DNA from: an uncultured Endomicrobiia bacterium
Lineage (GTDB): Bacteria; Elusimicrobiota; Endomicrobiia; Endomicrobiales; Endomicrobiaceae
DNA: 64,000 nucleotides
Direction: 5' to 3'
Assembly: GCA_938040055.1 (NCBI GenBank)
Contig: CALHWY010000007.1
Location: 10,132-74,131, forward strand
Shown here one piece after another: positions 34,299 to 36,012 of the stretch. Both the position numbers and the translations under genes were made by a program. Every line of letters begins with the position of its first letter. Position 1 is the stretch's first letter. Below the pieces are notes generated by a model. That model saw only the letters and a list, made by a program, of their open reading frames with translations. It was not told where the DNA came from and searched no databases.

Positions 34299-35363
34299 TT
34301 AATTTATCATTTTTTTCAGCAGACGGTCGGTTTCTATAAAATTTACGGCTTTGGCAAATGAATCCGGCTCGCTTAATGCCGTATAATAATTTTCTTTGAT
34401 CCGCGGAGCGAATTTCACCGCCTCAATAAACTCTTTTTTATTAAAAGGCCCGGCGCTTACAAAATCCGCGAAACCGCTGCTTTCAAGAAAATTTTTTATA
34501 TCGCAGGCTCTCGGATTGTCCTGTATGAGAGCGCAAAGATATGCGGCCGCGCCCACCTGGAGACCGTGCATGCGCGGAGAGAAAAAAAGATGGTCGAGAG
34601 CATGCGAAATGAGATGTTCGCTTCCGCTGGCAGGTCTTGAAGAGCCGGCAATTTCCATCGCTATGCCGCTAAGCACAAGAGAGTTCGCGAGTTTTGAATA
34701 AAAATTTTTCGAATCAAAATTCTTTTCCGAAGCCGCATAATATAAAGCGTCAAGGGAATTATAAGCGATAAGCGAAGCAAAATCATTATACTCCTCCTGC
34801 TTTTTTTCAAAAGCCCTTTTCCAGTCCCATAAAGCCGTAACTTTTGAAACCATATCTCCCAAACCGGAATAAAATGATTCCTTGGGAGCGTTCGCTATGA
34901 TGTCCAAATCCGCCACCACGCCGTAAGGTATGCTGGATTTGACCGATTTTCTTTTCCCTTCAACCAATAATGACGCTCCCGGACTGCAAAAACCGTCATT
35001 TGAAAGAGAAGTCGGAACGCTTATGAAAGGCAGTTTTAAAATATGAGCGCAGTATTTGCTGTAATCCAGCGATTTTCCCCCGCCTACGCCTATGAGCGCG
35101 TCCGTGTCCGCGGGCACTTTAAAAGCCGTGTATATTATATTTTCTATGTTTATATCGGAGATATAATCTTTGCGCGCCGTTTTTATGCCGTATTTTTTAA
35201 AACCTTCATAAAGTTTTGCGCCTGCCACGCTTTCTATTCCTTCGGAAAAGAAAAGAGACACTTTCATATATTTTCTGTCATAAAGATATTTGCCTATTTT
35301 AACAAGCTTTCCGCTTCCTATTTTCAAAAGGGAAGGTATGCTTATCTCTTTATTCAAGTCCAT
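34299..35363 (-). CDS. sn-glycerol-1-phosphate dehydrogenase-like (EgsA/AraM family, iron-ADH superfamily)
   Basis: 354 aa. Motifs: LIGVGGGKSLDYSKY, PFISVPTSLSNDGFCSP, SGLGDMVSKVTALWDW, ASGSEHLISHALD, HGLQVGAAAY. These match the G1PDH pattern as I remember it. The start overlaps the HAD gene by 14 nt. Confidence 0.7.
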   Translation of the reverse strand: MDLNKEISIPSLLKIGSGKLVKIGKYLYDRKYMKVSLFFSEGIESVAGAKLYEGFKKYGIKTARKDYISDINIENIIYTAFKVPADTDALIGVGGGKSLDYSKYCAHILKLPFISVPTSLSNDGFCSPGASLLVEGKRKSVKSSIPYGVVADLDIIANAPKESFYSGLGDMVSKVTALWDWKRAFEKKQEEYNDFASLIAYNSLDALYYAASEKNFDSKNFYSKLANSLVLSGIAMEIAGSSRPASGSEHLISHALDHLFFSPRMHGLQVGAAAYLCALIQDNPRACDIKNFLESSGFADFVSAGPFNKKEFIEAVKFAPRIKENYYTALSEPDSFAKAVNFIETDRLLKKMIN

Positions 35364-36012
35364 AAAGCCCTCCGATATATTTTGTTATATCGCCGAAATC
35401 ATTAAACTTTAAAGTTTTTATGTTTTCTTTTTCGCACAGCGCGGCGAGAATGCCTTTGGCAAACACGGCGTCGGCCGATTTCGCCGCTTTAATGTCCGGT
35501 CTGCCGTCTCCGGCATAAACGGTAAAATATCCCCGGCGTTTGAAATCCTCCACGACGGCCTCTTTCGCTATTCCGGTCTCTTTGCCGTAATAAGGGTTTT
35601 CTTCCGGCAAAGCTTTAAGTTTAAAACCCGTTCCGGGAGAATACTCCGCCTTATTGGATATAACGGATATATTGTATTTTTCAATATATCCTGGAATGCG
35701 TTTATATATATAATAGTCCATTCCCGCGCTGCAAATATAAACGGGAACGCCAAGGCGGGCGCAGAGTTTCAGCGTGCCGGGAAATTTTTTGTCTATTTTT
35801 ATGTTTTGAATAAAAGCGTCCAGCTTTTCCTGCTCTATCGAGACTTTTGCAAATATCCTGCTTAAAGCTTCAAAATGCGTTATTTTTCCGGACTCATAAT
35901 CGTTCCATGGCTTGATATCTTCTTTTTTAAGAAGCTTTTCAACAACCATGCCGAAAAAATCTTCTCCGGATATCGTCCCGTCAAAATCGCTGATTAAAAC
36001 GGTTTTTGTCAT
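35350..36012 (-). CDS. HAD-superfamily phosphatase (HAD-IB, MtnX/PSP-like)
   Basis: 220 aa. Motifs: VLISDFDGTIS (DxDGT motif I), ICSAG (motif II), AGDGRPD (motif IV). Confidence 0.75.
   Translation of the reverse strand: MTKTVLISDFDGTISGEDFFGMVVEKLLKKEDIKPWNDYESGKITHFEALSRIFAKVSIEQEKLDAFIQNIKIDKKFPGTLKLCARLGVPVYICSAGMDYYIYKRIPGYIEKYNISVISNKAEYSPGTGFKLKALPEENPYYGKETGIAKEAVVEDFKRRGYFTVYAGDGRPDIKAAKSADAVFAKGILAALCEKENIKTLKFNDFGDITKYIGGLYGLE

Follow-up and report, generated by a model that had tools for sequence, protein, structure and literature searches.

We examined a window of 64,000 nucleotides from an uncultured Endomicrobiia bacterium (assembly GCA_938040055.1, contig CALHWY010000007.1) and focused on two overlapping minus-strand genes, one for a HAD phosphatase and one for a homolog of sn-glycerol-1-phosphate dehydrogenase (G1PDH). 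According to the list of open reading frames (ORFs) and the family models, the first gene of the pair (35350-36012, minus strand) encodes an MtnX-like HAD-IB phosphatase of 220 amino acids (aa), and the second (34299-35363, minus strand) a G1PDH-family NAD(P)-dependent dehydrogenase of 354 aa with an Fe-ADH_2/DHQS-like fold. Their junction (35350-35373, minus strand) reads ATCGGAGGGCTTTATGGACTTGAATAA on the minus strand. The two genes share 14 nt (35350-35363), the dehydrogenase ATG lying at 35363-35361 and the HAD stop codon TAA at 35352-35350, and a GGAGGG Shine-Dalgarno sequence for the dehydrogenase is found at 35373-35368, within the 3' end of the HAD gene. As both the ribosome-binding site and the ATG of the dehydrogenase sit inside the last HAD codons, the arrangement implies translational coupling in its classic layout.

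A hairpin scan found a terminator-like hairpin followed by a T-run 5' of the pair (36629-36644, minus strand), and this structure, read from 36644 to 36629, probably ends the preceding transcription unit; about 600 nt of noncoding DNA separate it from the HAD start codon. Two further terminator-like hairpins lie 3' of the dehydrogenase stop codon (34179-34167 and 34107-34092, minus strand), and after them comes a promoter-like site for the next gene (34088-34061, minus strand), matching at 10 of 12 positions. With hairpins on both sides, the HAD and dehydrogenase genes look like a separate bicistronic unit.

The initial annotation had recognized the 354-aa protein by four G1PDH motifs, and all four are present: GVGGGKSLDYSKY at residues 92-104, SVPTSLSNDG at residues 115-124, GDMVSKVTALWDW at residues 169-181 and SGSEHLISHALD at residues 246-257. 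The model searches agree with the homology that it proposed. The protein matches Pfam PF13685 (Fe-ADH_2) with 129 bits (cut-off 28), and the best of all models by far is the NCBIfam model for G1PDH (NF002022, 223.6 bits). The GldA model NF006941 failed with 61 bits (cut-off 336), the haloarchaeal glycolaldehyde reductase model gave 39.8 bits (cut-off 550), and the aroB model 17.5 bits. When solved structures were searched by sequence, the top match was PDB 3CE9 (289 bits over the full length, both proteins having 354 aa), followed by the G1PDHs of Methanocaldococcus jannaschii (147 bits) and Pyrobaculum calidifontis (128 bits) and by 9H4X (108 bits), identified in the fold search as AraM of Bacillus subtilis, while GldA structures reached at most 54 bits. 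An AlphaFold model of the dehydrogenase (predicted local distance difference test, 80.5) gave template modeling (TM) scores of 0.88 to 3CE9, 0.76 to M. jannaschii 4RGQ and 0.78 to 9H4X, and the fold ranking follows the sequence ranking, with 3CE9 first, then the archaeal G1PDHs, B. subtilis AraM and finally GldA. By these comparisons, the dehydrogenase is a homolog on the G1PDH branch and neither an ordinary GldA nor a 3-dehydroquinate synthase (DHQS).

The residues around the predicted active site tell the same story. Asp170, His250 and His266 are invariant in 93/93 aligned sequences and align to residues 181, 259 and 280 of the 4RGQ chain. In native M. jannaschii numbering these correspond to Asp148, His226 and His247, reportedly the ligands of the Zn ion (Carbone et al. 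2015), and a 33-residue tag offset of the 4RGQ chain fits that numbering. The three residues of the window protein thus probably form a Zn- or Ni-type metal site. A five-residue SRPAS insert before the metal His is present in the dehydrogenase (SSRPASGSEH) and common to all G1PDH-type sequences aligned, and corresponds to a gap in Escherichia coli GldA. Over the segment SSRPASGSEHLISHALD, 16 of 17 positions equal those of the M. jannaschii enzyme (SSRPASGSEHL-SHALD). Inside the insert lies Arg243, a residue that may bind the substrate phosphate. It is invariant in 81/81 members of the clade to which the window protein belongs, and the two archaeal G1PDHs and AraM have it as well. It is replaced in three relatives, by Ser in 3CE9, by Ser in a Clostridium butyricum protein and by Ala in a Cytobacillus protein, and where their gene context is known, these relatives also have no HAD neighbor.

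The partner protein passes two NCBIfam models of the HAD-IB group, TIGR01489 with 97 bits (cut-off 81.55) and TIGR01488 with 57.5 bits (cut-off 45), and is also matched by PF12710. Both the class and the overlap given in the initial annotation stand. Its catalytic motifs are intact (DFDGT at residues 9-13, SAG at 94-96, K150 and GDGRPD at 168-173, the last of the form GDGxPD), and all four are conserved across 52 partner sequences, consisting of the window HAD and 51 orthologous partners. The best solved structure is that of MtnX (2FEA). The cap has conserved residues of its own, unlike MtnX (W36, G42, H46, A49-L50 and F54), and the protein fails the MtnX equivalog models (TIGR03333, 85 vs 303 bits; NF007103, 86 vs 292 bits). 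A search of the genome with PF01008 (MtnA) gave no match, which makes a role in methionine salvage unlikely, and we rejected MtnX as a candidate identity on the failed cut-offs and the missing MtnA-type gene.

To place the pair among its relatives, we scanned one genome per species and kept 80 loci, mostly from metagenome-assembled genomes (MAGs), for the analysis of gene context. Relatives of the dehydrogenase turned up in at least 591 of these species genomes, among them Elusimicrobiota, gut Alphaproteobacteria, Gastranaerophilales, Treponema, Fibrobacter, Actinomycetota, Myxococcota, Verrucomicrobiota, Planctomycetota, Acidobacteriota, Desulfovibrionaceae, Omnitrophota and others. The closest homologs carry the names Endomicrobia, Elusimicrobiota or Elusimicrobium and belong to organisms of the gut and rumen, and the pair is found in soil and freshwater aerobes too. 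A HAD phosphatase gene lies directly upstream in 68 of the 80 loci. In 53 of the 80, spread over many phyla, it is a HAD-IB gene on the same strand, and in another 15 it encodes a HAD-IIA protein of about 262 aa (Hydrolase_6 and Hydrolase_like, NagD/AraL type). Neither HAD type was found in 12-13 of the 80 loci, one of which is cut off at a contig end. No other neighbor family recurs around the pair in the 80 loci: lipid, cytidylyltransferase and transferase genes do not recur beside it, nor is a transporter or phosphodiesterase gene conserved there. Four homologs looked up individually, one of them from an Elusimicrobium isolate, each lie in a two-gene cassette like that of the window, and the neighbors are otherwise unrelated.

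Within the phylum, represented by a sample of 201 Elusimicrobiota genomes, a close homolog of the dehydrogenase was found in 17 genomes besides that of the window, and a HAD gene adjoins it in 17/17. The occurrence is patchy: of 63 further genomes sampled from the window's family, 16 carry the homolog, and in one genus with small genomes it is found in 0/30.

The pairing persists across a change of partner. In a tree computed with IQ-TREE (LG+C20, quick search, SH-aLRT support only), E. coli GldA, used as the outgroup, is distant and on a long branch, and the window dehydrogenase belongs to an 85-sequence bacterial clade (SH-aLRT 98) together with 3CE9 and with DVU_RS16375, the homolog from Desulfovibrio vulgaris pDV1, which has 40% identity. 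Within this clade, 3CE9 falls into a Clostridium/Cytobacillus subclade, the one with Ser, Ser or Ala at the position of Arg243. B. subtilis AraM, a gene of the Priestia megaterium ara operon and two Rubrobacter genes form a separate clade (SH-aLRT 100). The archaeal G1PDHs lie outside the window clade, and the designation of the enzyme as archaeal-type in the initial annotation is not supported. The loci with a HAD-IIA partner form a single subclade inside the window clade (18 rows, support 98), and the tree thus indicates that the phosphatase partner has been exchanged for an unrelated HAD type with the pairing retained. That the pair kept a phosphatase even as the type changed speaks for dephosphorylation being a part of what it does, and the conserved phosphatase partner suggests hydrolysis of the phosphate ester rather than its use in a lipid or polymer.

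A few loci depart from the common arrangement. One of the loci without a HAD gene, from Margulisbacteria, has a calcineurin-like phosphoesterase gene directly downstream: in this Marinamargulisbacteria MAG (L031:7047-7580) the Metallophos_2 gene begins 3 nt past the dehydrogenase stop codon with no HAD gene upstream, and it may represent a third type of phosphatase partner. In Desulfovibrionaceae, the gene 5' of the dehydrogenase codes for a protein of about 720 aa (L093:3657-7050; L068:3833-6001). The one on pDV1 of Nitratidesulfovibrio vulgaris Hildenborough (L093) is labeled a SpoIIE-family phosphatase by PGAP, the equivalent long ORF of Solidesulfovibrio (L068) encodes a C-terminal HAD domain (residues 510-677), and the phosphatase partner may here be fused to a regulatory module. 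In a MAG contig labeled "Lactobacillaceae" (L001:5755-9077), genes for a DUF2157 membrane protein and a GDYXXLXY-domain protein abut the pair upstream on the same strand, possibly as a four-gene operon. A distant homolog with 30% identity on plasmid p1 of Streptomyces fungicidicus (L095:5252-7810) lies between genes of the phosphocholine-cytidylyltransferase and CDP-alcohol phosphatidyltransferase families, followed by a glycosyltransferase and an ABC transporter, and this branch seems to serve a pathway of CDP-activated glycerol phosphate.

The source genome (2.06 Mb, 100% complete) allows the possible fates of sn-glycerol-1-phosphate (G1P) to be followed beyond the window. The initial annotation had noted that the window lacks PcrB, and a search for PcrB/GGGPS (PF01884) extends this to the whole genome, which has no match. 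The same is true of UbiA-family prenyltransferases (PF01040; DGGGPS type), of TagF-type glycerophosphotransferases, of FGGY kinases (GlpK type) and of MIP/GlpF channels, all searched for in the genome without a match. Among 14 control genomes, PF01884 was positive in 7, including all four archaea, and PF01040 in all 14. Across the 201 phylum genomes, matches to the PcrB model are weak, partial and at most 28 bits. The genes gpsA and plsY are present, adjacent to each other on another contig. We rejected an archaeal-type ether lipid on the missing PcrB, UbiA-type and TagF-type genes and the weak, partial PcrB matches of the phylum, and a replacement of gpsA by the pair on the presence of gpsA-plsY. 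Supply of sn-glycerol-3-phosphate (G3P) via glycerol kinase was rejected likewise, as the genome has no FGGY kinase and the 17 sampled Elusimicrobiota genomes with the pair have none that passes the family cut-off. The G1P-based lipid or polymer considered in the initial annotation is not supported, because no G1P-consuming genes were found and a normal gpsA-plsY set is present.

The phosphatase is the constant element of these loci, and the dehydrogenase has all the features shared by proven reducers of dihydroxyacetone phosphate (DHAP). This leads us to read the pair as a putative self-contained module that would take DHAP and NAD(P)H to G1P and on to glycerol and inorganic phosphate, a reading to which we give a probability of about one half. 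In the first step, as family membership and conserved residues suggest, the dehydrogenase would reduce DHAP with NAD(P)H at the Asp170/His250/His266 site to G1P. In the second, for which the gene pairing and the intact motifs speak, the cotranslated HAD-IB enzyme would split G1P into glycerol and phosphate. Overall, the module would act as an irreversible overflow and redox valve through which NAD(P)H is oxidized and triose phosphate drained. Since its intermediate would be the G1P enantiomer, it could leave alone the G3P pool on which gpsA-plsY draw for phospholipids. With no glycerol kinase in the genome, the glycerol would not be recaptured and presumably exits the cell by diffusion. The HAD gene beside all 17 homologs of the phylum sample, the missing HAD neighbor of relatives that have lost Arg243, the hairpin-flanked pair, the intact HAD motifs and the lack of G1P consumer genes in the genome are all counted in favor of this conversion.

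Several points weigh against it. The NF002022 score of 223.6 bits falls short of the equivalog cut-off (413), and the clade of the window protein is a separate and uncharacterized one. No published activity for 3CE9 was found in the literature, its structural-genomics label "glycerol dehydrogenase" being no functional evidence, and a haloarchaeal protein annotated as G1PDH turned out to be a glycolaldehyde reductase inactive on DHAP and G1P (PMC9700705). The phosphate-binding role given to Arg243 is our own inference, and the residue is kept in 13 loci without a HAD neighbor. Finally, the physiological benefit is speculative and must fit not only gut anaerobes but also the aerobes among the carriers, from Planctomycetota, Verrucomicrobiota and Acidobacteriota.

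The two steps could also take place in the reverse order, the HAD enzyme hydrolyzing DHAP to dihydroxyacetone and the dehydrogenase reducing this ketone, or another small carbonyl such as glycolaldehyde or hydroxyacetone; with dihydroxyacetone the product would again be glycerol. HAD phosphatases acting on DHAP exist (HdpA of Corynebacterium glutamicum), and Gtp1 of the CDP-2-glycerol pathway in Streptococcus pneumoniae reportedly reduces dihydroxyacetone. Relatives in the superfamily use unphosphorylated substrates as well, 3CE9 being labeled a glycerol dehydrogenase and the haloarchaeal "G1PDH" being the glycolaldehyde reductase mentioned above (PMC9700705). Against these precedents stand the 81/81 clade members that keep SSRPASGSEH and Arg243, as DHAP-binding enzymes do, the loss of Arg243 in the three relatives without a HAD neighbor, and the score of only 39.8 vs 550 bits with the glycolaldehyde-reductase model. 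We consider the reversed order unlikely.

Equally doubtful is that the substrate is a C4-C6 keto-sugar phosphate, from which the pair would produce a different polyol by the logic of mannitol-1-phosphate dehydrogenase/phosphatase, or that the HAD protein is a phosphotransferase. The separation of the clade from the proven G1PDHs (SH-aLRT 98), the score below the equivalog cut-off and the conserved cap residues that differ from those of MtnX leave room for another substrate, and HAD-IB includes the phosphotransferase ThrH. The surroundings of the metal site are nearly identical to those of the DHAP-bound M. jannaschii enzyme, however. Also against this reading, the typical substrates of HAD-IB members are small C2-C3 phosphate esters, phosphoserine and phosphoethanolamine among them, and some HAD-IIA proteins are known glycerol-phosphate phosphatases.

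Less probable again is that G1P itself is the wanted product, destined for a lipid or surface polymer such as heterochiral ester phospholipids made via PlsY/PlsC, with the phosphatase acting on a downstream intermediate or trimming surplus G1P. There are precedents for such a use, as PlsY and PlsC reportedly accept both glycerol-phosphate enantiomers (PMC13400652) and the genome has PlsY, the G1P of B. subtilis AraM feeds PcrB with a phosphatase acting later on the lipid (PMC12345273), and the position of the Streptomyces homolog between cytidylyltransferase and CDP-alcohol phosphatidyltransferase genes suggests that some family members feed activated-glycerol pathways. Here, a cotranslated soluble phosphatase would destroy the supposed product, only a soluble phosphatase recurs beside the dehydrogenase in the 80 loci, where uppP is not conserved, and the genome has no PcrB/GGGPS, UbiA-type or TagF-type gene, the PcrB matches of the phylum staying at or below 28 bits. 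The more specific proposal that the dehydrogenase supplies G1P to the cell's own PlsY/PlsC, giving a fraction of heterochiral ester phospholipids with a G1P backbone in hundreds of carriers and leaving the phosphatase to set the G1P pool, we regard as quite improbable. Hardly more credible is a catabolic role, in which the dehydrogenase would make DHAP by oxidizing G1P that lipoteichoic acid, phosphatidylglycerol head groups or archaeal lipids release into the environment, and the HAD protein would be accessory or unrelated: the reaction is reversible and the organisms with the closest relatives live in gut and rumen, which are rich in such compounds, but the coupled phosphatase would hydrolyze G1P ahead of its oxidation, no transporter or phosphodiesterase is a conserved neighbor, and the pair is also found in soil and freshwater aerobes.

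The surroundings of the pair in the window have features of their own. The neighbors singled out in the initial annotation, uppP and membrane proteins, are indeed there; they are not conserved beside the pair elsewhere, and terminator-like hairpins and a promoter-like site lie between. Family models identify uppP/BacA at 32129-32959, and around it lie the genes of two membrane-anchored ankyrin-repeat proteins (30514-31794 and 32960-34009, both minus strand), each with an N-terminal hydrophobic segment and then at least four Ank repeats. Ankyrin repeats are uncommon among free-living bacteria and usually hint at host interaction. A functional link between the pair and uppP or the ankyrin proteins was rejected, given the intervening hairpins and the lack of conservation. 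On the other side of the pair, searches of its flanks with Rfam and for tRNAs, including the 1.3-kb upstream gap, gave no match, and a riboswitch, tRNA or other RNA in that gap was rejected on these empty searches. The gap holds the remnant of a CoA-binding (YccU-like) gene (36890-37256, minus strand) that starts with MKKGKIAVAGVNGNPEKFGYKIF and goes on in two further frames, first LVLTAVCPAVTDKITDECIALGIERIWMQPGSRSEAAVKKARKPE and then GIEVTDKGCFMSAEGVW; it is either a pseudogene with two frameshifts or the result of assembly errors. Beyond it, three successive genes (37297-38643, 39779-41437 and 41501-42346, all minus strand) encode large polytopic membrane proteins whose tails are long and of low complexity, and only that at 39779-41437 matches DUF975, weakly and below the cut-off. 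Farther on, a low-GC island (44300-47905, minus strand; 31-34% vs about 43%) carries two DNA methyltransferase genes, one of the D12-class N6-adenine type (44836-45837) and one N6_N4_Mtase (46976-47905), with a 378-aa ORF without a family match between them, and is probably a restriction-modification system. It is bounded by genes for a PaaK-like AMP-binding ligase (42525-43826) and an indolepyruvate/pyruvate:ferredoxin oxidoreductase-like protein (47746-49521).

Bacterial G1PDH homologs are known in 14 of 44 phyla (PMC5059525), and a deep bacterial G1PDH clan has been described (PMC6431249). In the literature on the lipid divide, such "G1PDH orthologs" are cited as a sign that bacteria, or the last universal common ancestor, could make archaeal-type G1P lipids (PMC6431249, PMC5059525). 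The window clade, with its at least 591 species genomes, is almost always tied to a phosphatase and has no link to a prenyltransferase. If the proposed conversion of DHAP to glycerol is true, a large share of the bacterial G1PDH homologs would be unrelated to membranes, and the conversion would serve bacteria as a glycerol overflow and redox valve stereochemically apart from the G3P of their lipids. The pair would also offer a defined and easily cloned bacterial source of G1P, as sought in work on the promiscuity of PlsY/PlsC (PMC13400652). Neither a conserved phosphatase pairing nor a route from G1P to glycerol was found in the searchable literature.

How the pair compares with known systems differs from one system to the next. 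The closest solved relative of the dehydrogenase, 3CE9 from Clostridium acetobutylicum (NP_348253.1), belongs to the same clade and has the same metal triad and the SNDGF and DW motifs. It differs in having Ser for Arg243 (GNSSPASGAEH) and Asn for Lys174, and its close relative in C. butyricum has no HAD neighbor. For the phosphatase, MtnX (2FEA) is the closest characterized relative, from the same HAD-IB subfamily (TIGR01489) and with the same catalytic motifs, but the failed equivalog models (85-86 vs 292-303 bits), the other cap residues and the lack of MtnA in the genome set the window protein apart. With archaeal EgsA (M. jannaschii 4RGQ/4RFL and P. calidifontis 5FB3; EC 1.1.1.261) the dehydrogenase shares the fold (TM 0.74-0.76), the Asp/His/His triad, GGGxxxD and SSRPASGSEHLxSHALD; identity is about 30%, and EgsA falls into a separate clade. 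EgsA has no phosphatase partner and feeds GGGPS and DGGGPS for ether lipids, both of which the window genome lacks.

The likeness to AraL-AraM that the initial annotation proposed holds for the gene order and not for the families. In B. subtilis, a HAD-IIA sugar phosphatase gene is followed by that of a Ni-dependent G1PDH (9H4X), and here too a HAD gene lies directly before, and in the same orientation as, a G1PDH-family gene. A Rubrobacter plasmid, with a member of the AraM clade, shows the order of HAD-IIA and then G1PDH as well, and the subclade next to that of the window protein also uses HAD-IIA, as AraL does. The window dehydrogenase, however, is outside the AraM clade (SH-aLRT 100) and has about 24% identity to AraM, and AraL is a HAD-IIA protein of an arabinose operon, whereas the window HAD is of type IB with no arabinose operon; as annotated at first, arabinose genes are absent among the flanking genes scanned. 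The G1P made by B. subtilis AraM goes to PcrB, YvoF and LhaT for the N-acetylation of lipoproteins in an acetyl-carrier pathway (PMC12345273), and PcrB is absent here. As for a relation to S. pneumoniae Gtp1 and its neighbors gtp2/gtp3, no cytidylyltransferase gene recurs beside the pair in the 80 loci.

The logic proposed for the pair has counterparts outside its own families. The bifunctional mannitol-1-phosphate dehydrogenase/phosphatase likewise reduces first and then dephosphorylates. The "glycerol shunt" of yeast and mammals, formed by a G3P dehydrogenase and a G3P phosphatase, follows the same sequence of reduction and HAD-type dephosphorylation to a polyol (PMC9579801, PMC8752807). The shunt dehydrogenase has an unrelated fold and makes G3P, not the G1P proposed here, and the likeness to the window pair is one of mechanism and not of family.

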